A stretch of DNA of 64,000 nucleotides from Escherichia coli (GCA_029351405.1 GCA_029351405.1_4841.1), one strand, 5' to 3'; shown: positions 2,362-59,008, counted from the stretch's first letter. Numbers and translations are program-made. The notes: generated by a model from the letters alone, not told the origin.

Positions 2362-2823
2362 CTACTCCGCCAGGGTGATCACAACCATATTTAAGACTGT
2401 GTCGATAGCTCGGCCTGTTTCCTCTTCATGGAGGGTTTCGGCGCGGAGGTGCACGTCGGTGATGAAATTGTCGATGTGCATTGACGTCAGGTACGGGCGG
2501 TGCTGGCTGACCGGACGGTTGATCAGTACATAGTTACGCAGTGTGTTGAAGTCCTGCTGAGAGCACCCGGTGGTGTCAATGCGCAGGAAGCGTTCATTGT
2601 GGCTTGTCTTCAACTCAGTTACTTTGCCGAGGTAGACCAGAGGTCCATTGCGACCGATACGGAACATAACATCAACAACAGACTTGAAGATTTCGCGTTC
2701 AATCAGTGCGGTGGGTGACCAGCAGATCTCTTCTTTGTCGTCGGCGTACAGGGTGTCGATCACCAGAGGGAGTTGAATGTAACCGAAGTTGTGCAGTGGG
2801 TTGGTGAGTACCTTGTTTGTCAT
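2362..2823 (-). CDS. hypothetical early protein (153 aa)
   Basis: The true ATG at 2823 is preceded by the conserved cassette ATTGAAAGCAGGAACTATATCATG. The longer ORF-track start is an artefact. Confidence 0.6.
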   Translation of the reverse strand: MTNKVLTNPLHNFGYIQLPLVIDTLYADDKEEICWSPTALIEREIFKSVVDVMFRIGRNGPLVYLGKVTELKTSHNERFLRIDTTGCSQQDFNTLRNYVLINRPVSQHRPYLTSMHIDNFITDVHLRAETLHEEETGRAIDTVLNMVVITLAE

Positions 2824-2873
2824 GATATAGTTCCTGCTTTCAATTTGTGGCGAATGCCAATGAATTACTGGGA

Positions 2874-8627: not shown

Positions 8628-9116
8628 TTAGGCCAGTTTGCTCACCAGAGCTTCAACTGCGTCGGCGCTCAGTTTACCCATTTTGACGTACTGAGCTTTT
8701 GCTTCGCCGCCAACTGCTTTCACGATGTCGGTGTTGTCGTACCCCTTCTTAGGGAAGACCATCACAGAGAAGGAACCGTTGTTCAGCGGGTTCAGCTGGA
8801 TGCGACCTTTACCGACTACGATGGTGCCGTAAGTTTCGGTGTTTGCTTCGACAATGTGGATGTCGTGACCCAGGTTTTTCAGCATACCAACTTTGTCGGC
8901 AGTCTTAGCAACCACAGCTTTGTCAACCACAACCTGCTCTACCAGGGTGAAGCCGTTAGTCGATTTCACTTTACCGTTCAGCAGGTTCATGAAGGAAGTT
9001 TTGCCACCAGTGAAGCCAGCCGCCTGAGCGATGCGGAACATTTCAACTTTAGCAACTTCGGTGTTCAGTTCGAAAGAGATGGTGCCGTTGGTGATCAGAG
9101 TTTTGGTAGTAGCCAT
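8628..9116 (-). CDS. hypothetical early protein (162 aa)
   Basis: ATG at 9116 after AGGAATTACATC. Has its own strong early promoter and a long structured leader. No motif recognised. Confidence 0.6.
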   Translation of the reverse strand: MATTKTLITNGTISFELNTEVAKVEMFRIAQAAGFTGGKTSFMNLLNGKVKSTNGFTLVEQVVVDKAVVAKTADKVGMLKNLGHDIHIVEANTETYGTIVVGKGRIQLNPLNNGSFSVMVFPKKGYDNTDIVKAVGGEAKAQYVKMGKLSADAVEALVSKLA

Positions 9117-9189
9117 GATGTAATTCCTCATAATGTAGTTGGTTCATTTCACTTTTCATTCGGCGGTGTGTTGCCGCCCTATGTGAACT

Positions 9190-15443: not shown

Positions 15444-15779
15444 TTATTTTTGAACTTGGGCTACAGACATCGCCCAGAGCGGGAGGGTGTGGGGGTCCAG
15501 GGCTTCCAGTAGATATTCGACGCGCTCTGACATGATACCTTCAGGGAAGTTTACTTCTTCTGGTTCGTTGTTGGCCGTCCAACCCAAGGTCAGTCCTTCA
15601 GCGTGATGGATGATATAAACGAAGTCGCCCGATTCGTAGTCCTTTTCCATCAGGTCGAAGAACGCTTCCATTTCTTCGTCGGAGAAGTAGTAGATGCGAG
15701 GTACGGAGCCGTCAGCAAAGTGTTCAGCACCCTGGAAGGCAAACATGTCATCGGCGGTGAAGTTCTTGAGTTGTGTCAT
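15444..15779 (-). CDS. hypothetical acidic early protein (111 aa)
   Basis: ATG at 15779 within the exact cassette TTGAACCGAAGGAACTATATCATG. Rich in D/E. Confidence 0.6.
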   Translation of the reverse strand: MTQLKNFTADDMFAFQGAEHFADGSVPRIYYFSDEEMEAFFDLMEKDYESGDFVYIIHHAEGLTLGWTANNEPEEVNFPEGIMSERVEYLLEALDPHTLPLWAMSVAQVQK

Positions 15780-15801
15780 GATATAGTTCCTTCGGTTCAA
15801 A

Positions 15802-16077
15802 TTAACGGCGGAAAGGGCGGTTTGCGTTTTCGCGGTTAGACCAATTCTTTTCAGCCCGAGCGATAGCCGCTGGACTCCATTCGCGCTCCCACTCTTTGTC
15901 TACTTCAGCCTGGTTGGCAGGCTCTACCATTTCAACGCCAGGGAAGTCGCATGACATGATTTCGCGCAGCTGGGCAGCTGGGGCGGTCTGGGCGTGGATC
16001 AATTCTTCGCCGTCGTAAACCTTGGCCATCAGGTATTTCTGACCGTGGCGGATATATGCGTCGAGGATAATTTTCAT
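15802..16077 (-). CDS. hypothetical early protein (91 aa)
   Basis: ATG at 16077 within the cassette TTGAAAAGCAGGAACTACACCATG. An early promoter lies 49 nt upstream. Confidence 0.6.
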   Translation of the reverse strand: MKIILDAYIRHGQKYLMAKVYDGEELIHAQTAPAAQLREIMSCDFPGVEMVEPANQAEVDKEWEREWSPAAIARAEKNWSNRENANRPFRR

Positions 16078-16125
16078 GGTGTAGTTCCTGCTTTTCAAGT
16101 TGGTGTTGTACTGCTTATGGAATGA

Positions 16126-16822: not shown

Positions 16823-17436
16823 TATCTTGTCCTCTTCAGTTTCTCTATCGTGTGCTTGTTCATGGCGATCACCCGAGGATCTACCTCGGAGATGGTCCGG
16901 CCTTTGAAGGACACACATTTCTGAAGATATTTAGCTTTCTTCACGACGTCAGCGGCATAAGCGTTCGATGCAGGATTACGGGCAAAGCCAGCATTGTAAG
17001 AGGAGAGGGATTTGCGGATATTCTGATTGTGATAGGTCAGCCAGAACTGCATCTCATCGAGGGCGGCTTGCGCGGCATATTCTTGGTCGGTCAGCAACTT
17101 TATGGCGACATTGGCATAGCACTTGCGATTCTTACAACCTTCGCGATCACCAACTGTCTTCACCTTGTTCTGAAAGGCTCCCATGTTGGCCGCCTTGAGG
17201 CCGTATCGCATTGACACTACATCTTCGCCAGCGCGGCTCTCACGCCAAGATATGGCGGCCAGAGTGTAGCCAAGATCTTGTGTCTTGCCCACGTGATAGG
17301 CGGTTGCCATCGTATTAAGTTGTTGCTCGGAGAAATTATAAACACATTGGCTTGTATTTTGGGAAGCGTGCACATTCCCGCTGGCAATGGTAAAGGTCAC
17401 GGACAAGGCCATGGCCTTCAACGTTGTCATCGTCAT
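16822..17436 (-). CDS. secreted lytic transglycosylase (SLT domain) with signal peptide
   Basis: Signal peptide MTMTTLKAMALSVTFTIASGNVHA|SQ. SLT-type catalytic region AISWRESRAG and a later SSYNAG motif. Confidence 0.7.
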   Translation of the reverse strand: MTMTTLKAMALSVTFTIASGNVHASQNTSQCVYNFSEQQLNTMATAYHVGKTQDLGYTLAAISWRESRAGEDVVSMRYGLKAANMGAFQNKVKTVGDREGCKNRKCYANVAIKLLTDQEYAAQAALDEMQFWLTYHNQNIRKSLSSYNAGFARNPASNAYAADVVKKAKYLQKCVSFKGRTISEVDPRVIAMNKHTIEKLKRTR

Positions 17437-26616: not shown

Positions 26617-27279
26617 TTACACCTCCACCGCGTGAGACTTCAGGAGTTCATCAATCTCTTTCTGTCCCATGTATGAGAACGGGGTGCGCTGGTAGAACGC
26701 CCAGAGTACTAACTGGACAACAGCACGGGAACGGGTTTCGGCCGTCATCACCAGGCCACTGAAATGAGGAGACTCAGCTGTCCATTGTATCTCTTCGCCC
26801 AGGTCTTGATTACAGGTCACCGAGATGCGGAACTTGTTGCACAGATTGTCGACTTCTTTGTACGCATCGGTAGACACACGAAGTTGTTCCGCATGTGCCC
26901 ACGGAGTTGTGACGATTCTTTCACCCATCACTTTATCAGAGATAAACCAATCAATACATTCGGTAAACTCACTAAAATGGTCGATACGATAAATGCAGTC
27001 TCCCCCTTCCATAGAACGCATGGCATGATAGCGAGCGTCGATTTCGTTGTTGTGCATCGCGTTGAAGTCGATGAACACGCGACGCGCCAGCACAACATCT
27101 TCTGGTTGAAGTGCCAGGAAATCGTTCAGGCGGCTATAATGGAGGACATTGGAACCGTCGTGGCCACGTGTGCAATATGCGTAATGGCTACCGATACGGG
27201 CGTGGGCAATATAAGACAACGGGGCGAAGAATAATCCGTCAGGATCAGGACCGACGATAATAGAATAAAGTTTTTCCAT
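26617..27279 (-). CDS. hypothetical early protein (220 aa)
   Basis: ATG at 27279 after hairpin GGGCGGCttatcataaaGCTGCCC + tttcatttgagtGACTATATCATG. Confidence 0.6.
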   Translation of the reverse strand: MEKLYSIIVGPDPDGLFFAPLSYIAHARIGSHYAYCTRGHDGSNVLHYSRLNDFLALQPEDVVLARRVFIDFNAMHNNEIDARYHAMRSMEGGDCIYRIDHFSEFTECIDWFISDKVMGERIVTTPWAHAEQLRVSTDAYKEVDNLCNKFRISVTCNQDLGEEIQWTAESPHFSGLVMTAETRSRAVVQLVLWAFYQRTPFSYMGQKEIDELLKSHAVEV

Positions 27280-27335
27280 GATATAGTCACTCAAATGAAA
27301 GGGCAGCTTTATGATAAGCCGCCCGAGGTTATTGA

Positions 27336-30263: not shown

Positions 30264-30637
30264 AATGTTCCACCCCCGACAGAGATCAAGAACTCTTCTT
30301 GCATGGTCTTGACCGGGTGGTGGTTTCGGATTTCGATCATGAAGCCCCAGCCGCCGTCGGCGACGTTGCCAAAGGTCTTGACGCCAAAGGACTTCGTCCC
30401 GTTGGAGCAGGAATAGATGTCCAGGACGTATGGGCTACCCTGATTGTCGATCCCACGATTCACGTCTTCTGATACGCAGCGCTCAATCATCTTCCCGTTC
30501 TTATACAGAACGAGGTCTTGGCCATACGCCTTGAAAGCATAAACACCGTTGGTAGACACTCCGGTGATGACAGGAGGGGCGGAAACAGCAGCAAAGGAAG
30601 CGCCTAGCAGGGCAACAGCGAGGATTAACTTTTTCAT
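30260..30637 (-). CDS. predicted secreted protein (125 aa)
   Basis: ATG at 30637 in the cassette TTGAAACCAAGAGACTATATCATG. Signal peptide MKKLILAVALLGASFAAVSA|P. Confidence 0.65.
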   Translation of the reverse strand: MKKLILAVALLGASFAAVSAPPVITGVSTNGVYAFKAYGQDLVLYKNGKMIERCVSEDVNRGIDNQGSPYVLDIYSCSNGTKSFGVKTFGNVADGGWGFMIEIRNHHPVKTMQEEFLISVGGGTL

Positions 30638-30661
30638 GATATAGTCTCTTGGTTTCAAATG

Positions 30662-30689: not shown

Positions 30690-31196
30690 TTATAGAGTAA
30701 CAAGTGATACGGTAAAAACCATCGTCCCGTCTGTTGCCATTTTTCTTGAAACTGGTATGACGCGAGGCTGGCAGAATATCCATTCTTTCTCCATGGACGC
30801 CAAGTCCAGCATATCCATTTCTGATTCATCGCCTTTGTTCACAAATTTTTCTAGAGAACCATAGACATTAAGCCCCTCCGGGAGTCCGTTTCGATGTTTG
30901 TAACAAATGCGGGCAACAGCTTTGGTTCCGTACGATTTAGAAAATTGTTTGGCCACATGCTTCAGTTCACTGAAGCTAAGACAAGAATCCCATGTCTGGA
31001 ACATGTCGCCTCGTTCAAACATCATCTCTAAACGCGCAACGTCCTCTTTAGGCAGCCCGCGATAAAGTGTGGTCGTCTGTGGTTCGCGTAATTCTTGCAC
31101 CAGATCACGGACGGCAGGGGAAACAGTACCGGGGCGCATTATGTGGGACTTATCATGGACGAGGTAAAATAAATCTTGAATTTGTTGATCGGTCAT
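30690..31196 (-). CDS. candidate mono-ADP-ribosyltransferase (R-S-ExE class; T4 Alt/Mod-like size)
   Basis: 168 aa. The ordered motifs TLYRGLP (Arg), CLSFSEL (S-x-S) and MEKEWIF (E-x-E) have spacing typical of the ART fold. ATG at 31196 in the exact cassette. Confidence 0.45.
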   Translation of the reverse strand: MTDQQIQDLFYLVHDKSHIMRPGTVSPAVRDLVQELREPQTTTLYRGLPKEDVARLEMMFERGDMFQTWDSCLSFSELKHVAKQFSKSYGTKAVARICYKHRNGLPEGLNVYGSLEKFVNKGDESEMDMLDLASMEKEWIFCQPRVIPVSRKMATDGTMVFTVSLVTL

Positions 31197-31222
31197 GGTA
31201 TAGTTCCTGCATTTCAAATAGA

Positions 31223-38368: not shown

Positions 38369-39592
38369 TTATTCAGGTTTCTTCAAACGGTCCAGCAAAT
38401 TGACGGAACCACGTTTGAGCACGACTTCATCACAGCGCTTTTTGTATTCCCCACCGCCGTCATAGCTGACCTTGCCCCGAGGTTTTTCACCGCGCCCAAC
38501 CGCCTCAACACAGCGGGTGTACTTGCTCAGTTCACAGAACATGTTCTCCAGCTGCATAACGTTCATGCACTGATCTACAGGCTCTTCAGCCGACCAGAAT
38601 TGCTCACGAACATACCCATATTGGGAATACACCGCGTCCTGATTGTCCCGCAACCAGAAGATGCATTCTTCATGCGTCATGCCATCTTTGTCCTGGAACA
38701 TCAGATCAATCCCTGCGCGACAGCCTGGTCCAGCAACCGTGAAGTGGTTCTCACTGAAAGGATATCCAGGAATGTACGTGAAATCAACCCAGATCTGATA
38801 GGCCAGGAATGGACCAAGCCCTTCGATGTCGTCATACATGCGCTGGTATACTTCCAGAGGAGTACCAAGGCGCAGCAAGTCATGGAAATAGTTTGGATAC
38901 TTGTTGACGAATGCCTTCAGAGAACGGATAACACGCATCGGCATGTATGGTTCCCATCCCTCGATGGTATATTCACCAGGATTCTCTTCGACCAGCTTTT
39001 TGGCGACCTTGTAGTCCATCTCGTCCACAATACCCTGGCCAACGCGATACACTTTCACCATCATCCCACCGAAGCGCTGCTCCTTGTGGTTGACAACCAG
39101 CTCAGGGAAAGCCAGGCATTGCTTCAGGCCGCCCGTGTTGAAGGCATTGGTGAATACCTTACCGCCGTCGGCCTCGAACTTCTGAAGTCGTTCGCGGGTT
39201 GCATCAAGGTTGATCTTGGCGAATTCTTTGATCGTCATCGCGCCGCCGATAGCCTGGATTGGATCCCAGAGGTTGAACATGCGGAACAACACGCAGTTGA
39301 ACATCTTGTCGGCCATACCCAGAGCATCGTTGTTGACGATGTTGTTGATCAGGTTGAGAGACTGCCTGTCGTGCTCTCTCCGGACATTACAGAACTTGAC
39401 CTGCCGTAATATGGGATTATCAGTCCAAGGAGCAGGAAGGCGCTGGACATCCTTCTTGACGTGGATCTGATAACGATCGCGCATCCATTCGTAAGACAGG
39501 CGGGTATGGGTCGGACTGAGAACCGGTTTGGCCGACTTTATCTTTTCTTCACGGACACCGCAGTACGGGACGTCTAGGGCTTTATCTTTCAT
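38369..39592 (-). CDS. probable thymidine-hypermodification enzyme (alpha-glutamyl/putrescinyl thymine pyrophosphorylase, aGPT-Pplase-like)
   Basis: The N-terminal signature YEWMRDRYQIH..LPAPWTDNPILRQVKFCNVRREHDRQS matches my recollection of the aGPT-Pplase family (PWTxDPIL..FxNVxRExDR). Needs HMM confirmation. Confidence 0.5.
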   Translation of the reverse strand: MKDKALDVPYCGVREEKIKSAKPVLSPTHTRLSYEWMRDRYQIHVKKDVQRLPAPWTDNPILRQVKFCNVRREHDRQSLNLINNIVNNDALGMADKMFNCVLFRMFNLWDPIQAIGGAMTIKEFAKINLDATRERLQKFEADGGKVFTNAFNTGGLKQCLAFPELVVNHKEQRFGGMMVKVYRVGQGIVDEMDYKVAKKLVEENPGEYTIEGWEPYMPMRVIRSLKAFVNKYPNYFHDLLRLGTPLEVYQRMYDDIEGLGPFLAYQIWVDFTYIPGYPFSENHFTVAGPGCRAGIDLMFQDKDGMTHEECIFWLRDNQDAVYSQYGYVREQFWSAEEPVDQCMNVMQLENMFCELSKYTRCVEAVGRGEKPRGKVSYDGGGEYKKRCDEVVLKRGSVNLLDRLKKPE

Positions 39593-40549: not shown

Positions 40550-41014
40550 TTATTCGCTTTTGGCCTTTGTAGGCCGGATAATGTATTTTGGGACCAGCTT
40601 CCATTCAGGAACCTGATCGTGTTTAACCACTTTAATGCGTGACATATCAGCGGCTTCGGTGACCTGCTCAGGATGAATGACCTTCACCATGTTCCACTGC
40701 TCCAGCAGCTTGATGATTCGGTTCATCCTCAGGACATCTTCGCGGTTAAATCCGTTGTAATGCCCGTCCAGCATAAATAGATGCTTAAAGTGGACGATAT
40801 AATACTTACCACACTTATGAAGAATATGGCAAGTCTGATACAGAGTATTCGGCTCTTGGCGCGTGTTTACCCCAATTCGACTCAGTGTTTCCTTGATCCC
40901 CAGGAATATACCTGGCCGATCTTGGTTCAATTGAACTTCAACCATACAATCAACGATGCTGGCCTCATCGTTGACTGCTGAAATATTCAATATGTCTAGC
41001 GTATTACGCGCCAT
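40550..41014 (-). CDS. regA: translational repressor RegA homologue (N-terminally extended)
   Basis: IKETLSRIGV..NTLYQTCHILHKCGKYYIVHFKHLFMLDG ... EWKLVPKY parallels T4 RegA VKETLTRMGI..VLYQSCHILQKKGLYYIVHFKEMLRMDG ... EWKLVPKY. Sits after 44-62 as in T4. Confidence 0.85.
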   Translation of the reverse strand: MARNTLDILNISAVNDEASIVDCMVEVQLNQDRPGIFLGIKETLSRIGVNTRQEPNTLYQTCHILHKCGKYYIVHFKHLFMLDGHYNGFNREDVLRMNRIIKLLEQWNMVKVIHPEQVTEAADMSRIKVVKHDQVPEWKLVPKYIIRPTKAKSE

Positions 41015-41042
41015 GACTCATTCCCCTTTACAATAGTTTGAA

Positions 41043-41465
41043 CTACTTAGCCTTGCGCGGTTTCGCTTTGGCGTTCAGCTCAGTGCGTCTCATCTTCTCG
41101 CGTATCTCGGCCAGGACTTCCTTCGGCAAGAAACGGACGTACTCCGATGCCTTCTCCATGCTGATGTAGAAGTACTCTGAGAGTAACTTCACGTCAGGAT
41201 CAATCGGACCTTTCTTAGACCATTTGTCGTAGCGTTTCCGAGCCGGAATGGTGTAAAAGGCATATGACCATTGCATCCATGGAGTGATAGCATGTAGCTT
41301 ATTCATCTGTTGCGCAGCCACTAGAGTGTCTTTGCTCTGAGCTAAACCACGCCGCGTCATAAACGGGTCGAATCCTTTCAACACTTCTGGGTCATCAGAC
41401 CGCAAAAGGTTTTCTTTGCTGCTGTTCAGAGCAGCCAGGTAATCGAACAATCCAAGGGCGGCCAT
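41043..41465 (-). CDS. gp62: clamp-loader small subunit (T4 gp62-like)
   Basis: Synteny. FMTRRGL...TIPARKRYDKWSKK parallels T4 gp62 FMVENAL...AVPRGKRYGKWAKL. ATG at 41465. Confidence 0.65.
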   Translation of the reverse strand: MAALGLFDYLAALNSSKENLLRSDDPEVLKGFDPFMTRRGLAQSKDTLVAAQQMNKLHAITPWMQWSYAFYTIPARKRYDKWSKKGPIDPDVKLLSEYFYISMEKASEYVRFLPKEVLAEIREKMRRTELNAKAKPRKAK

Positions 41466-41469
41466 AATA

Positions 41470-42459
41470 TCACTTCCACTTGATGTTGAGCATGACATTG
41501 GTCAGGAAAAACACAGCATGCAACCAGACATCGCCGACTTGGCGGTGTTCAATCTGAGACTGACCACATACGCACACCAGATCAGGGATAGACTCATTCT
41601 GAACCAACATTTGCTTCTCTTTATCCTGTGGCACACAGAACTGGAAGAAGCGGGAATAGAAGTCTTCAGTGATATAGTTCTGGTTGTCGGTCACCCACTG
41701 CTTCATCCCAGCCCAGTCATTATCCTTCAACATATTCACCAACATGCCCATATCGGCCGATTTTAACACAGCCAGTGCACGTTCGTCGATCTTGCCGTAA
41801 GTGGTGACGTTATCCTGTAGAACACCCATGATGCGGCGGTTATCAGGGAAATGGCGCTTGACAATAGCAGCCAACACAGGAGGGTCATACTCAACACCTT
41901 CGCTGCGAAGGATTTCAGCACAGCGGCGCATGAACTGAAGTTTGACCTCATCAGCCTCAGTCTCATTCCAGATAAAGTCGATTTCACGGCAACGAGAGCG
42001 CAGAGGTTCGTTCACACGTTGCTTGGCGTTGGTGGTCAGGATGAATGAACAGTTCTTGGAGACCTTCTCCACAATACCCTTCAGCGACTCCTGCGCCGCC
42101 ATAGACAGACGCTCTACTTCGTCGAGGATAACGACTTTGCGACCACCGAATACACTCACACCAGTAGAGTACTGAATCACGCGGTCACGGATAACGTCGA
42201 TACTGTTGTCCAGGGATGCGTTGATCATCAGTGGTTGCTTACAACCGATCTCGTTACACACAGCCAGGGCGGAGGTAGTCTTGCCAGTACCAGGCTGAGG
42301 GGAGTAGAACAGCATAGACGGGATGTTACCGTTGCCGCTGGTGATGTAGCCATGGATTTTAGCGCGGACGTCTTGAGGGATGATAATCTCGTCCAGGTTG
42401 TCAGGGCGGAAACGGTTCTCCCAGGCGTACTGGTCTTTTACAATCGTGATATTAGACAT
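41470..42459 (-). CDS. gp44: clamp-loader large subunit, AAA+ (T4 gp44-like)
   Basis: WENRFRP, Walker A PQPGTGKTT, Walker B VVILDEVE and SRC motif LRSRCREI. The C-terminus ...NIKWK matches the T4 gp44 end ...EMQWK. Confidence 0.88.
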   Translation of the reverse strand: MSNITIVKDQYAWENRFRPDNLDEIIIPQDVRAKIHGYITSGNGNIPSMLFYSPQPGTGKTTSALAVCNEIGCKQPLMINASLDNSIDVIRDRVIQYSTGVSVFGGRKVVILDEVERLSMAAQESLKGIVEKVSKNCSFILTTNAKQRVNEPLRSRCREIDFIWNETEADEVKLQFMRRCAEILRSEGVEYDPPVLAAIVKRHFPDNRRIMGVLQDNVTTYGKIDERALAVLKSADMGMLVNMLKDNDWAGMKQWVTDNQNYITEDFYSRFFQFCVPQDKEKQMLVQNESIPDLVCVCGQSQIEHRQVGDVWLHAVFFLTNVMLNIKWK

Positions 42460-43115
42460 TATGTATTTCCATGATATAGTTTACAGAACAGAACCCAAGC
42501 GTCGTCATCATACGGGTTCCAGCCCTCTTTGAATTTGTTTAACATACTCGTTGCGGTGTTCTCTTTAATAGAGAACAAACGGGCAATTCTATGGCACCCA
42601 TCACCAGTAGAAACCCAGTGATCATACACTACCCCAGCCTTTAACCACATCGGTCTGGTGTTGTGTAGCAGCGCAGCCCCGGTGTCCCAGGGTTTTATTC
42701 CTGCGGCGGGGTGGCTTTTACCAGTTCTTCCGTGCATGGGATGAAGATTCCCAGACTTGCCCTTCAACCAACTCGAGACACCAACTCGGTGATGTTTAGG
42801 TCCCGCTGACCTACCGTTGGCGATACCACAACCCCGTGGCTGAAATGATTTGTTTAAACATTTTGGGTGATCAATGTTCTCACTAATCAACTGCTGCTCT
42901 CTCCAATATGCTTCTTCTGGGGAGTCAAACAGTTCTACGAATTCTACATCAAAGAAATCAGAACCTTTCTTAGATATGATTTCCTTGACTGTTTGTGAAG
43001 AAGTGAAATATGAAGTGAACAATTGTAAAGGATGTGCACCCAATTTCGTTCTAGAACCAAAATAGAAAGAACCATCCTTCCCTAACAAATGATATACAAA
43101 CGGTTGGTTCCTCAT
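42459..43115 (-). CDS. GIY-YIG homing endonuclease (T4 Seg-like) with NUMOD3-like repeats
   Basis: FVYHLLGKDGSFYFGSRT (GIY...YIG variant), EEAYWREQQLI, CLN, then GNLHPMHGRTGKSHPAAG. ATG at 43115 with SD GAGG. TAATG overlap with gp44. Confidence 0.7.
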   Translation of the reverse strand: MRNQPFVYHLLGKDGSFYFGSRTKLGAHPLQLFTSYFTSSQTVKEIISKKGSDFFDVEFVELFDSPEEAYWREQQLISENIDHPKCLNKSFQPRGCGIANGRSAGPKHHRVGVSSWLKGKSGNLHPMHGRTGKSHPAAGIKPWDTGAALLHNTRPMWLKAGVVYDHWVSTGDGCHRIARLFSIKENTATSMLNKFKEGWNPYDDDAWVLFCKLYHGNT

Positions 43116-47330: not shown

Positions 47331-47843
47331 TTATACCGCATTTCGTGGATTAGAATCAATCGCCTTCCCACCAGATAGTGGAACCAGCTGTTGGAACTTG
47401 AAGGTCACTGTCGTCACCAGCTGAGGTACAGCCGCGTCTACGTCCACCAGTACGTTGTCCAAAGCAGTCGGGCGGGCTTCCTCCAGCACGAGAGTGAGGC
47501 CAATCGGTCGGTTGAGGTTATCCAGCAATTCAATGGTAATGTCCTTGCTGACAGGCAAATCCTTGCCGACGTTGCTGGTAATCCATTGGTGGATCTGTAA
47601 CCATGATTTCCAGTCCTCGTCTATAACGAAAGTAAATACGACGGGATCATAGGTTAAACGCTCTGAAGGTATAGAAACCAACACGTCACCAGGAGACGGA
47701 CCATCGATGCCTTCGGAGTACACCCCTGGTATACTGAAGTCGTGGATGTTACGGGTTAGGAGTACAAGGTCTCCGATAGTCAGACGCCACTTATCGGACG
47801 CCGCGAAATTAGGGTTTTCGTTCTTAAATTGTACGTTGGACAT
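47331..47843 (-). CDS. tail-tube-fold baseplate/tail protein (gp19/gp48/gp54-like)
   Basis: ATG at 47843 (MSNVQFKN). F..DKWRLTI...FSIPGV...YDPVVFTFVIDEDWKSW..IHQWI resembles the T4 tube-family N-terminal pattern. Confidence 0.4.
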   Translation of the reverse strand: MSNVQFKNENPNFAASDKWRLTIGDLVLLTRNIHDFSIPGVYSEGIDGPSPGDVLVSIPSERLTYDPVVFTFVIDEDWKSWLQIHQWITSNVGKDLPVSKDITIELLDNLNRPIGLTLVLEEARPTALDNVLVDVDAAVPQLVTTVTFKFQQLVPLSGGKAIDSNPRNAV

Positions 47844-47880
47844 AATAGCACCTTTACTGTGGAGATATTTTGTGACCCTG

Positions 47881-48522
47881 ATGCGCGGGATCAGTAGATT
47901 GTTGTTGGCATGCTCGATGCTCTTGTTTACGAGCTGTCGCATCTTTGTCACGCCAATAATTTCTGTTTCCGAACTCTGGAACCCAGAAGTGCGCACTGTA
48001 CCTGTGACGTTGTCGGCCAGCGTTCCCACTTGTAACAAGGGTATGCTGGACATCATCGTGCAAGAGTTCCAGCCCTTCCAGAAGCTCGTACCTTTAGGTT
48101 GCTTTGATGAGAACACGAGCACCCTCAAGCCATACTGGAAGACCACAATTCCTCTCCTGCGGCGTGGCGATGAAGGGAAGATTCCATACCTATCAGCAAG
48201 TATTTATTACTCTCAGAACAACAGCATCATTATCACCTTTAATCCATCATTCCATGCCAAGCTGAAGCAACACATAGTTGGGCGACTGGATACAACATCA
48301 GATATAATCGTGACGTTCAAGATCATGAATGACTCAGATAAACCAGTACGAATCGCAACTCAGGGTGTGTTCGTTAACAACGACGCGGTTGGAAATGGGA
48401 TGAGTATCTTTGAAGTTAACCCAGGGGGAACGATCTTGATCAGACTGAGTAATGTGGGTGTGAACTCCCTGCTGTTGGATGGCATCGAACCAGTGGGAGT
48501 TCTTCCGGCGCGGGAGCACTGA
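47881..48522 (+). CDS. predicted lipoprotein (213 aa) on the opposite strand
   Basis: MRGISRLLLACSMLLFTSC has an n-region, an h-region and a lipobox-like LFTS|C. The ORF fills the whole 47881-48522 gap, ending stop-to-stop against the next gene. No obvious SD. Confidence 0.5.
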   Translation: MRGISRLLLACSMLLFTSCRIFVTPIISVSELWNPEVRTVPVTLSASVPTCNKGMLDIIVQEFQPFQKLVPLGCFDENTSTLKPYWKTTIPLLRRGDEGKIPYLSASIYYSQNNSIIITFNPSFHAKLKQHIVGRLDTTSDIIVTFKIMNDSDKPVRIATQGVFVNNDAVGNGMSIFEVNPGGTILIRLSNVGVNSLLLDGIEPVGVLPAREH

Positions 48523-50342: not shown

Positions 50343-50426
50343 GAGAGTGGTGATAGTTCCTTCATTTCAGAGTCAGTGTTGTGCTGCTTATGGAATGAAG
50401 TATATGGGGTTTATTGAAGAAGTAAA
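50343..50426 (-). repeat. early promoter + leader cassette copy B (orphan: the ATG position is mutated)
   Basis: Minus strand reads TTTACTtcttcaataaaccccaTATACTtcattccataagcagcacaacactgactcTGAAATGAAGGAACTATCACCAC. About 80% identical to copies at 16078-16154 and 58961-59036, but CACCAC replaces ATCATG. Confidence 0.7.
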
Positions 50427-50696: not shown

Positions 50697-51140
50697 TCAG
50701 TTGTTAATGCGGAACAGTTGTGGATAACCACCTGGATGCCCTTCTCCGGTCACGAAGACCTCGTACCGGGCACCTTTAACCAAACCGGGCAAATTGCCTG
50801 AGTCGAGCAGATAGCGGATTTTATCCATAGTGTCCATCCAGGACTTAGCAGGTTCAGCTTCAGCCTCTCCACGATTGAGGACGAGTTCACCTTCAGAATA
50901 ATACTTCCCGCTGTCCTTCATGTAGTACAGCTTGATATGGATATACTGAGGGGATGGGACCAAACGCCAGCCGTCATCAATCAGATCCTGGCGATCATTA
51001 TCCAGGGACTGGTAATCGATCTCACCAGACGCCAGACCATAGCTGCGCATGTAGCGGAACTTCTCAACACGGTCTTTCACGTCAGAGATGAAGAACTCCT
51101 TCGCGGCTGGACTGATAAAAATGTATTTCTCTTTTGACAT
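50697..51140 (-). CDS. hypothetical early protein (147 aa)
   Basis: ATG at 51140 in the exact cassette TTGAAAGGAAGGAACTATATCATG. The upstream TGA lies inside the TTGAAA. Confidence 0.6.
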   Translation of the reverse strand: MSKEKYIFISPAAKEFFISDVKDRVEKFRYMRSYGLASGEIDYQSLDNDRQDLIDDGWRLVPSPQYIHIKLYYMKDSGKYYSEGELVLNRGEAEAEPAKSWMDTMDKIRYLLDSGNLPGLVKGARYEVFVTGEGHPGGYPQLFRINN

Positions 51141-51157
51141 GATATAGTTCCTTCCTT

Positions 51158-51382
51158 TCAAAGAATGATGTGTTTGTCGATATCGGACTGCGTTGCAATC
51201 TCCCAGCGGACGATGTTCTCGGTTGTGATGAAATCACGGTTCAGGTGAGAGGCTGGCACATACACCAATGTGTTGACCATGAAGTAGCGCTGCTCATTGT
51301 TCCAGGAGTCAACATAAGCCTCAATAAGGCACACTTCGATCACTTCGCCTTTCGGATTCTTCACAGTCTTTTTCAGATACAT
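51158..51382 (-). CDS. hypothetical protein (74 aa)
   Basis: ATG at 51382 (MYLKKTV). Confidence 0.45.
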   Translation of the reverse strand: MYLKKTVKNPKGEVIEVCLIEAYVDSWNNEQRYFMVNTLVYVPASHLNRDFITTENIVRWEIATQSDIDKHIIL

Positions 51383-52446: not shown

Positions 52447-53769
52447 TTAGAACAAGCCTTTGATCAGCCCTTTACGGAAGTACACGTTGCTGTCCTGGGC
52501 GATACCGTCCGCAGTCACATAGACCTGTGGATCCTGGTTCGCTGGGATCTGAACGAATGGGTTAGCACAAATCCCGTAGCGGGTCTTGAACGCCATACGT
52601 GGCGCGAAGGTGGTTTCACCCTGGGTGCGGTACATTTCCAGCGGCACATACGGCGCGAAGAAGATACCAGCATCCAGCGCGGTCGCGCCTTTGTATGCCA
52701 GGGTGATGTACTCTGCTACTGCATACGGGTCGATGTAAACGCGCATGCCGTTAGACAGAACACCAGCGAAGGTCTGACCAGTTGGGTCAATCGCCAGCTT
52801 GGTGTTTTCCTGCAGCGCCGGAGCATAATCCAGCATGCCGGACATCGCCAGAGCGGATGCTACGTTCGGAGAGCACAGAACACGGTTGCCTTTACCACGA
52901 CGGGTGTCAACACCGATGCCGTTCGCTTCAACTTCCAGCATGAAAGTCATGTACTTCCATTTTTCCAGCGCCCAACGACCGGAGATGTCAGTGGAGATGT
53001 CTACGATACCGTTGGTGCCGAATTTTTTGAAGCGTACTGCGCTGAAGTTCATGGTGCGGATAAACTCACGGTTCATCTCTGCCTGAATTTCAGTTACCAT
53101 CACGTCGGACAGGATGCTGTCAACGTCTTCGCCGTGGATCGCCATCATGTCCTGGCGCAGTTCGTGGCTGTAGTCAGCGTACAGGCCGCGAGACTTCGCA
53201 GTCACGGTTGCTTTCTGAACGGTGATACCGACACGTGCCCATGGGTTGGTGGTGGTGCCCAGCAGTTCAGCGTCGGTAGATGGCATGCCTTTACCGATGG
53301 TGGTGGTAGCAGCGCCGGAACCTTCGATCTCAGTCTGGGTAAAGCCAGATGGGTCGCCAGCCTGAGCAGTGCCGTCACCAGAATAGCCAGAATCAGCTTC
53401 CTGCATGAACAGTTCTTTACGGGACTGTGCAGTGTTGGAACCGTCTGCAACACCTTGGCGAGCACGCAGTGCGAAGATCTGACCGTCAGGACCAGACAGC
53501 GGCTGAACGCCGAAGAAGTCCATCGCGATGTTGACCGGAGCCAGACGTTTGGCCATGTCGATCAGGACTGGCTGCCATTTGCCCACAGAGGCGTTCACGG
53601 AGCCAGGAGCGTCGGATTCGCCCAGGTTTTTGGCGTTCCACTCAGCCTGGTTTTGCAGCAGACGGACGGCAACGTTTTCGGCAGAAAGCGGCTGGATGCT
53701 TTCAGATTCTTTCTGAAGAACCGGCAGCCACTGCTCGCGCATTTGTTCGGTAACAAGTTTCTTAGCCAT
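52447..53769 (-). CDS. gp23: major capsid protein (T4 gp23-like)
   Basis: FGVQPLSGPDGQIFALRA, AKSRGLYADYSHELRQDMMAIHG, KTRYGICANPF and C-terminal YFRKGLIKGLF parallel T4 gp23. ATG at 53769 (or 53778). Confidence 0.92.
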   Translation of the reverse strand: MAKKLVTEQMREQWLPVLQKESESIQPLSAENVAVRLLQNQAEWNAKNLGESDAPGSVNASVGKWQPVLIDMAKRLAPVNIAMDFFGVQPLSGPDGQIFALRARQGVADGSNTAQSRKELFMQEADSGYSGDGTAQAGDPSGFTQTEIEGSGAATTTIGKGMPSTDAELLGTTTNPWARVGITVQKATVTAKSRGLYADYSHELRQDMMAIHGEDVDSILSDVMVTEIQAEMNREFIRTMNFSAVRFKKFGTNGIVDISTDISGRWALEKWKYMTFMLEVEANGIGVDTRRGKGNRVLCSPNVASALAMSGMLDYAPALQENTKLAIDPTGQTFAGVLSNGMRVYIDPYAVAEYITLAYKGATALDAGIFFAPYVPLEMYRTQGETTFAPRMAFKTRYGICANPFVQIPANQDPQVYVTADGIAQDSNVYFRKGLIKGLF

Positions 53770-58603: not shown

Positions 58604-58960
58604 CTATTTGCGAATGCCAACCTGAGCATAATACACATGATAATCACCGTGGGTACGGAAGCTGGTGAGGTGGAAGGTGACGAGGTGGCTCCCGAAAGCT
58701 ACAACTTTGGTATCTGGGGAGCATAAATCATTAGTTAGTTCACCCAGAACCTTACCACAAAACTCCCCAACAATAGCGTTAAATCTGTCAATGTGTGGAC
58801 TGGTCACCGTCATTGGACCAACATCTGCACAGTAGATCCCTTTTATCATCTTTCCCTGGCTGTCGCGTACTGGCTTTGCAGGCTGGTAAGGGTTGACGCG
58901 GCGTTTCAGGTTACAGAGGCCGATTTCTTTCAGGATAGCGTTAATTTCGGTCTTGGTCAT
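58604..58960 (-). CDS. hypothetical early-type protein (118 aa) inserted between the sheath and tube genes
   Basis: ATG at 58960 in the exact cassette TTGAAACGAAGGATCTATATCATG. Has its own early promoter and terminator. Confidence 0.6.
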   Translation of the reverse strand: MTKTEINAILKEIGLCNLKRRVNPYQPAKPVRDSQGKMIKGIYCADVGPMTVTSPHIDRFNAIVGEFCGKVLGELTNDLCSPDTKVVAFGSHLVTFHLTSFRTHGDYHVYYAQVGIRK

Positions 58961-59008
58961 GATATAGATCCTTCGTTTCAAGTTGGTGTCGTACTGCTTA
59001 TGTTTAGA

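Follow-up and report, generated by a model that had tools for sequence, protein, structure and literature searches.

The window analyzed here is a 64,000-nt stretch of DNA from an Escherichia coli assembly (GCA_029351405.1), and its minus strand carries, at positions 40550-41014, an open reading frame (ORF) of 154 codons plus a TAA stop that encodes a homologue of RegA, the translational repressor of phage T4. This identity had been proposed in the original prediction, which named no strand, and it was confirmed on several counts. The translation contains both of the peptides on which the proposal rested, LYQTCHILHKCGKYYIVHFKHLFMLDG and EWKLVPKY, and it matched the Pfam family PF01818 (Translat_reg, "Bacteriophage translational regulator") with E=2.1e-34 and 118.5 bits against a cutoff of 25, residues 24-146 covering model positions 1-121 of 122, i.e., the full length of the family. 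The same region (residues 25-146) matched residues 2-120 of the T4 RegA chain (PDB 1REG) with E=4.3e-26. [quoted passage not shown] The core (residues 24-146; 40577..40945, minus strand) is followed by a basic C-terminal tail, residues 147-154 (RPTKAKSE; 40553..40576, minus strand), which falls outside both the Pfam and the 1REG matches. The stretch 146-154 (IRPTKAKSE) holds three K/R against one D/E, and pLDDT is below 50 from residue 148 on.

An annotated "translational repressor protein" of Escherichia phage vB_EcoM-ZQ1 (GenBank) matches the window protein with 100% identity, identical or near-identical RegA is annotated in ~270 Ackermannviridae records (at least 80% identity, full length), and the same 465-nt gene is labelled RegA or translation repressor in phages Ag3, LIMEstone1, and YX22. 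Over the 2.9 kb around regA, identity is 97-98% with Escherichia phages YX22, PC3, and ZQ1, 93% with Shigella phage Ag3 (Ackermannviridae, Aglimvirinae, Agtrevirus), and 87% with Dickeya phage LIMEstone1. Judged by these matches, the source of the window is an Agtrevirus-like (ViI-like) phage of the Ackermannviridae, the identification of RegA as a standard, already annotated core gene of ViI-like phages is secure, and the gene is, by homology, an ordinary RegA orthologue already in public records.

The gene was also predicted to occupy the T4 position, as indeed it does: the order 44-62-regA is retained, with the clamp-loader small (A) subunit gp62 (41043..41465, minus strand; PF16790, Phage_clamp_A, E=1.5e-10; gp62 in Ag3 and LIMEstone1) and the clamp-loader large subunit gp44 (41470..42459, minus strand; PF21328, Gp44_lid, and PF00004, AAA) directly upstream. 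RegA thus directly follows gene 62 of the 45-44-62 replication cluster, an order common to Ag3, LIMEstone1, YX22, 3M, SP1, and Bullseye. The downstream gene differs from that of T4, being a MazG-like pyrophosphatase according to the annotation of relatives (the window copy had no Pfam match) and not DNA polymerase. Upstream, a free-standing ORF of 218 aa (42459-43115, minus strand; no Pfam match) is inserted between gp45 and gp44, starting at the position of gp44's ATG in Ag3 and using the gp44 promoter, hairpin, and leader. YX22 has this ORF, Ag3 lacks it, and LIMEstone1 retains only ~40 nt from its 3' end; judged by a motif like VYHLLGKDGSFYFGS, it may encode a homing endonuclease of the GIY-YIG type.

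The N-terminal extension of RegA

The first 23 residues of the protein (MARNTLDILNISAVNDEASIVDC; 40946..41014, minus strand) precede the part shared with T4 RegA. An N-terminal extension had been predicted and is present, but its length had been put at ~30 residues and is in fact 23, since Met1 of T4 RegA aligns with Met24. The motif M(A/P)RNTLDIL..SAV....I(V/I)DC is present in all close homologues (55-85% identity), and the RNTLDIL...I(V/I)DC signature is specific to the Ackermann clade as compared with other non-T-even RegAs. Residue 24 is Leu in many RegA homologues, including that of Serratia phage 3M, and therefore cannot be the start of those proteins. When codons 1-23 were compared across five genera, with Agtrevirus, Limestonevirus, Kuttervirus, and a Klebsiella phage among the lineages covered, 6-9 synonymous differences were found against 2-4 non-synonymous ones, the same ratio as in the core. 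The ATG at 41014 has a Shine-Dalgarno (SD) sequence, AAGGGG, 9-14 nt before it, whereas the sole SD-like sequence upstream of the Met24 codon is GAGG, ~17 nt away. AlphaFold2 placed two short helices in the extension, at residues 5-10 and 17-22 (pLDDT ~78-85). Together, the conserved motif, the Leu at residue 24, the synonymous differences, and the SD establish the extension as real, translated coding sequence. With one K/R against four D/E (net -3), it is unlike what would be expected of an added RNA-binding surface and does not suggest one.

Searched exhaustively with HMMER, 1.84 billion cluster representatives yielded 898 of the RegA family. In 147 of the best 150 of these, the residues N-terminal to the T4 start numbered two or fewer in 4, 3-9 in 32, 10-17 in 71, 18-30 in 31, and more than 30 in 9 (pooled, 3-17 in 103 and at least 18 in 40), figures that are approximate, metagenomic start calls being uncertain. 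Residues beyond the T4 start also occur in cyanophage RegA (~131 aa) and in metagenomic RegA proteins of 145-175 aa, one of which (P0037, 160 aa, from a different, low-GC, non-Ackermann lineage) is predicted to have the same two N-terminal helices (pLDDT 93). With a T4-short N-terminus in only 4 of the 147 sequences (best 150 of 898) and with P0037 also extended, the extension does not set this RegA apart. On this survey, the extension is the family norm and the 122-aa RegA of T4 is an N-terminally minimal outlier. Conclusions on the N-terminus and dimer interface of RegA that are based on T4 may fail to generalise, as the sole solved member of the family is that minimal outlier.

Start cassettes in the window and in related phages

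It had also been claimed that a set of early mRNAs shares an unusually rigid initiation sequence, and a rigid initiation sequence is indeed shared by a set of small, promoter-proximal genes. The cassette AGGAACTATATCATG, allowing up to two mismatches, was observed nine times in the window versus 0.03 expected, always on the minus strand and always at the starts of ORFs. Likewise, TTGAAANGNAGGAAC with at most one mismatch was observed six times versus 0.07 expected, all on the minus strand. Full copies end in the ATG of ORFs of 91-220 aa, an SD and an ATG being found in nine of nine, and the products of eight of the nine genes have no known function. One cassette ORF (30690-31196, minus strand, 168 aa) matched PHROG 832, "RNA polymerase ADP-ribosylase" (Alt-like), with E=2.8e-15; the paper on phage CBA120 describes ViI-like phages as being without Alt or ModA homologues (PMC3184105).

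The full module consists of TTTACTTCTTCAATA..TATACT, then CATAAGCAGTACRACACCAAC or a GGCGGGG..CCCCGCC hairpin, then TTGAAAnGnAGGAACTAYAYYATG; an example of the cassette as RNA is CAACUUGAAACGAAGGAACUAUAUCAUGACC. A -35/-10 pair (TTTACT-N16/17-TATACT, TATAAT, or TATTAT) lies upstream of four of the nine copies, and a G+C-rich hairpin occurs at six of the nine, either before the -35 or right after the -10, with four copies having a 5' hairpin in the leader. All of the copies described here are on the minus strand. Upstream of TTGAAACGAAGGATCTATATCATG (58958..58981) is TTTACT-N16-TATAAT; both TTGAAAAGCAGGAACTACACCATG (16075..16098) and ATTGAAAGCAGGAACTATATCATG (2821..2844) are preceded by TTTACT-N17-TATACT and a hairpin, which is terminator-like in the former. 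A divergent cassette, AGGAATTACATCATG (9114..9128), is downstream of TTTACT-N17-TATTAT and a hairpin. Both TTGAAATGCAGGAACTATACCATG (31194..31217) and TTGAAACCAAGAGACTATATCATG (30635..30658) follow a 5' G+C-rich hairpin, and a partial cassette, AGTGACTATATCATG (27277..27291), follows a hairpin. Two copies have no promoter and come directly after the upstream gene: TTGAACCGAAGGAACTATATCATG (15777..15800), which immediately follows that gene's stop codon and has an orthologous copy in Serratia phage 3M, and TTGAAAGGAAGGAACTATATCATG (51138..51161), which lacks a promoter-like site directly upstream. The cassette segment is predicted to be unpaired, its spacer UAUAUC and the AUG being A/U-rich with GAAA upstream, and an Rfam scan of the whole window matched no family. 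According to the 2011 paper, the early promoters of CBA120 were not findable by informatics (PMC3184105).

The cassette is also present in Serratia phage 3M (Miltonvirus; RegA 58% identical), Salmonella phage SP1 (Kuttervirus), and Klebsiella phage Bullseye, as well as in a divergent metagenomic relative and in ~157 kb IMG/VR contigs. Across genera of the Ackermannviridae, CTTGAAAnGnAGGAACT is the invariant part. Most genera have TAYAYY as the spacer; 3M is an exception, its spacer being variable in length as well as sequence beside a constant CTTGAAAnGnAGGAAC. Since the 5' half, CTTGAAAnGn, is kept across genera beyond the needs of SD pairing, an additional trans-acting reader is conceivable, and RegA is a legitimate candidate. 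In an IMG/VR scan with CTTGAAANGNAGGAACT, most of the matches listed, which numbered at least 120, were chance occurrences inside coding sequence (L-E-K/M-Q/K-E-L), and among these matches true start-region copies were found only on ~157 kb Ackermann-type contigs; the scan, aimed at cassettes in phages that lack RegA, therefore does not discriminate.

A remnant, CTGAAATGAAGGAAC (50356..50370, minus strand), has a promoter and leader and no ATG. The window aligns near-perfectly with phage Bullseye through the promoter, the leader, and AGGAACTA, and is unrelated downstream; the ATG and gene have been lost from the window copy, and homology stops exactly at the cassette in this one case. T4-type phages carry promoter-early stem-loop (PeSL) cassettes (Arbiol 2010, PMC2839356; Comeau 2014, PMC4122927), recombination modules in which a stem-loop and an early promoter are combined with an SD and a start codon (PMC4122927). 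The window cassette looks like these promoter-leader-start modules: both are repeated composite units in which a sigma-70-like early promoter and a stem-loop accompany an SD and a start, placed before small, variable early genes, and, as with PeSL, the window cassette sits where homology between related genomes breaks off (one case). The promoter of T4/PST PeSL is TTTACW-N17-TAYWAT, as compared with TTTACT-N16/17-TATACT, TATAAT, or TATTAT in the window. Unlike in PeSL, several of the window hairpins lie downstream of the -10 as a 5' leader hairpin instead of upstream of the promoter, the start region is much more rigid, with conservation that extends from genus to genus, and some copies (15777-15800 and 51138-51161) are entirely without a promoter.

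RNA-binding residues, leaders, and start contexts

The RegA monomer of T4 binds RNA in a helix-loop groove; in T4 and RB69 RegA, binding requires K14, T18, and R21 of helix A together with W81, and F106 is the site of cross-linking to RNA (PMC3014915). The T4 dimer has an E68-R91 salt bridge, the footprints of T4 and RB69 RegA cover either the AUG or the stretch that separates it from the SD, and, as of a 2010 review, no structure of a RegA-RNA complex had been resolved (PMC3014915). Operators of the T4 type are A+U-rich and unstructured, are located at the AUG or immediately 5' of it, and have an A tract on their 5' side. In an alignment of 25 diverse RegAs, T43, R46, and W107 of the window protein, which correspond to T18, R21, and W81 of T4, were invariant. 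The equivalent of K14 is G39, at a position where almost no member of the Ackermann clade has a basic residue, and the equivalent of F106 is H132, the clade having His there; both positions are variable across the RegA family and hence are not family-defining. The equivalents of E68-R91 are Val/Val, and a hydrophobic pair occupies these positions in almost every aligned sequence except that of T4. Thus, the window protein resembles T4 and RB69 RegA in Pfam family, in ~40% identity and a TM-score of 0.90 over the core, in the T18, R21, and W81 groove residues, and in its location after genes 44 and 62, and it differs from T4 RegA (122 aa) by 23 additional N-terminal residues with two predicted helices, by 8 additional basic C-terminal residues, and by the changes of K14 to Gly, F106 to His, and E68-R91 to Val/Val. 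This pattern suggests that the core mechanism of RegA is probably conserved, with room for shifted specificity; given the non-basic K14 position and the His at F106, RNA specificity may be different from that of T4. Targeted literature searches returned no functional work on RegA of the Ackermannviridae and no transcriptomics on RegA or early promoters.

The intergenic leader between gp62 and regA (41015..41042, minus strand) contains the SD AAGGGG at -14..-9 and the A+U-rich sequence CUAUUGUAAA, and is a candidate autogenous operator. An AUUGU-type A+U-rich element occurs at the same position of the gp62-regA spacer in four genera, being CUAUUGUAAAGG in the window, AAUAAUUGUUAAAGG in phage SP1, and UAAUUGUUUG in 3M. 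The SELEX consensus of T4 RegA is AAAAUUGUUAUGUAA (PMC3014915), and the leader element is closer to it than is the cassette, which has no match to the consensus beyond UUG. The leader element is thus a weak hint of T4-like specificity and of autogenous control.

Start contexts were tabulated for the 53 non-cassette genes, which have A at -3 in 39 cases, T at -2 in 31, and C at -1 in 29. ATC occupies positions -3..-1 in 15 of the 53, versus ~1.6% expected, and ATC-ATG is found also at ORFs that are syntenic with late structural genes of relatives (capsid, portal, tail tube). The 3' end of the cassette (ATC-ATG) is therefore a genome-wide start context and is not specific to the cassette. Starts at 53769 (the ORF syntenic with the major capsid gene of relatives), 54715, 57657, 52034, 40533, and 38254 are examples of this genome-wide preference. 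The leaders of gp44, gp45, and regA, whose T4 counterparts are the best-known targets of RegA, are without the cassette: gp45 and regA have leaders of their own, and in gp44 a promoter, a hairpin, and TTGAAATG come before a different SD. The part of the cassette that is conserved across genera includes the SD and lies upstream of the region contacted by T4 and RB69 RegA.

RegA and the cassette

Taken overall, the best explanation, and one that we consider probable, is that the window encodes an ordinary RegA orthologue with a T4-like mechanism and a normal extension, accompanied by a separate PeSL-like cassette. By analogy with T4 and RB69 RegA, the monomer would bind A+U-rich RNA that is free of structure, at start codons or immediately 5' of them, through the helix-A/loop groove (helix A, residues 36-45) that includes T43, R46, and W107, and bound RegA would block the 30S on a subset of pre-replicative mRNAs. 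The regA mRNA is probably among the targets, considering that its leader has an AUUGU-type A+U-rich element. The extension would form an acidic two-helix appendage on the core with a role that is probably structural; a role in the monomer-dimer balance is speculative. The cassette would be a separate, family-wide module made up of an early promoter, a short leader (CA-rich or with a 5' hairpin), an AGGA SD, an A/U-rich spacer, and the ATG, and its rigidity most likely reflects selection for efficient initiation together with spread and exchange of the module through recombination.

It is also conceivable, if unlikely, that this RegA has diverged, either to become mainly an autogenous or replication-gene regulator with a different RNA motif or to bind another partner through its extension. 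The changes that run through the entire Ackermann clade, with Gly or another non-basic residue for K14 and His for F106, the hydrophobic pair in place of E68-R91, and the conserved AUUGU element of the regA leader would fit such a change; however, T18, R21, and W81 are invariant, the fold is unchanged, and loss of E68-R91 is common to nearly all non-T-even RegAs, T4 being the unusual one.

Somewhat harder to sustain than divergence is the proposal that the cassette UUGAAAnGnAGGAACUAUAUCAUG is a well-defined operator dedicated to the extended RegA, through which the protein shuts off an early-gene regulon. In its favor, the cassette genes are small and promoter-proximal and one is Alt-like, as might be expected of early host-takeover genes that need later shut-off; the spacer is A/U-rich and predicted to be unstructured, like T4 operators; and the 5' half is more conserved across genera than SD function requires. 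RegA and the cassette also co-occur in every Ackermannviridae genome examined, but this is uninformative, as no Ackermann genome was found without either. A tie between the two through the extension is not supported: an acidic extension that is the family norm argues against a dedicated cassette reader, and extended P0037 occurs without a rigid cassette nearby, none being found in the 18 start regions of its contig. The AUG-proximal part of the cassette is the genome-wide context, seen also at late-syntenic ORFs, and varies in 3M, while the absence of the cassette from the gp44, gp45, and regA leaders argues against a dedicated operator. Moreover, a cassette was found at a recombination breakpoint (one case, Bullseye), and PeSL-type cassettes exist in T4-type phages (PMC4122927). 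Comparison of RegA and cassette across lineages does not bear on the link either way: the cassette core is identical between lineages whose RegA is only 58% identical, and the variants at the K14-equivalent position (G, S, L, V, M, C) have no matching change in the cassette across genera. The RegA proteins of PeSL-bearing T4-type phages are not known to carry an N-terminal extension.

A specific link between RegA and the cassette is possible but is unsupported by the sequence analysis. We doubt even more that the two form a dedicated operator pair, or that the core groove, perhaps with lineage-specific termini, recognises the 24-nt UUGAAAnGnAGGAACUAUAUCAUG as the high-affinity operator of ~10-25 early mRNAs per genome; repression by RegA of at least some of the cassette mRNAs, as part of a much larger set of targets, would be somewhat less improbable. 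An RNA motif like UUGAAAnGnAGGAAC would support reading of the cassette by RegA, and an A/U-rich motif of the AUUGU or UAA type would support the ordinary reading. If the cassette were the operator, it would be the first to be sharply defined for RegA, and the RNA-protein pair would be suited to the long-missing structure of a RegA-RNA complex. The early genes of the Ackermannviridae share a very rigid promoter-leader-start module that provides an easy handle on what RegA binds, and, if RegA bound the cassette, its recognition of RNA would be directly testable.

The least credible of the alternatives, that the extension is an annotation artefact and translation truly starts at Met24, draws on the exact alignment of Met24 with Met1 of T4 and on a database entry (P0015, Erwinia phage Bue1) annotated from the equivalent of Met24, and we rejected it because residue 24 is Leu in many relatives, the extension is conserved with mostly synonymous changes and is ordered in the AlphaFold2 model, and a good SD precedes the ATG at 41014 as opposed to GAGG ~17 nt before Met24.

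RegB was considered as another possible reader of early starts and was set aside, as the label of 3M_118, "putative RegB endoribonuclease", looks spurious. The window ORF at 16825-17436 (minus strand) is 54% identical to 3M_118 (3M 47555-48166), and Pfam gave for the latter a weak, sub-threshold match to SLT (lytic transglycosylase) and no RegB family. The N-terminus of 3M_118 is signal-peptide-like by eye; the DUF7270 ORF that adjoins the 16825-17436 ORF is unrelated to it. Elsewhere in the window, an ORF at 38369-39592 (minus strand) matched the 5-hmdU DNA kinase helical domain (PF18723, E=5e-82), an assignment consistent with the pathway of thymidine hypermodification that ViI-like phages are known to have.
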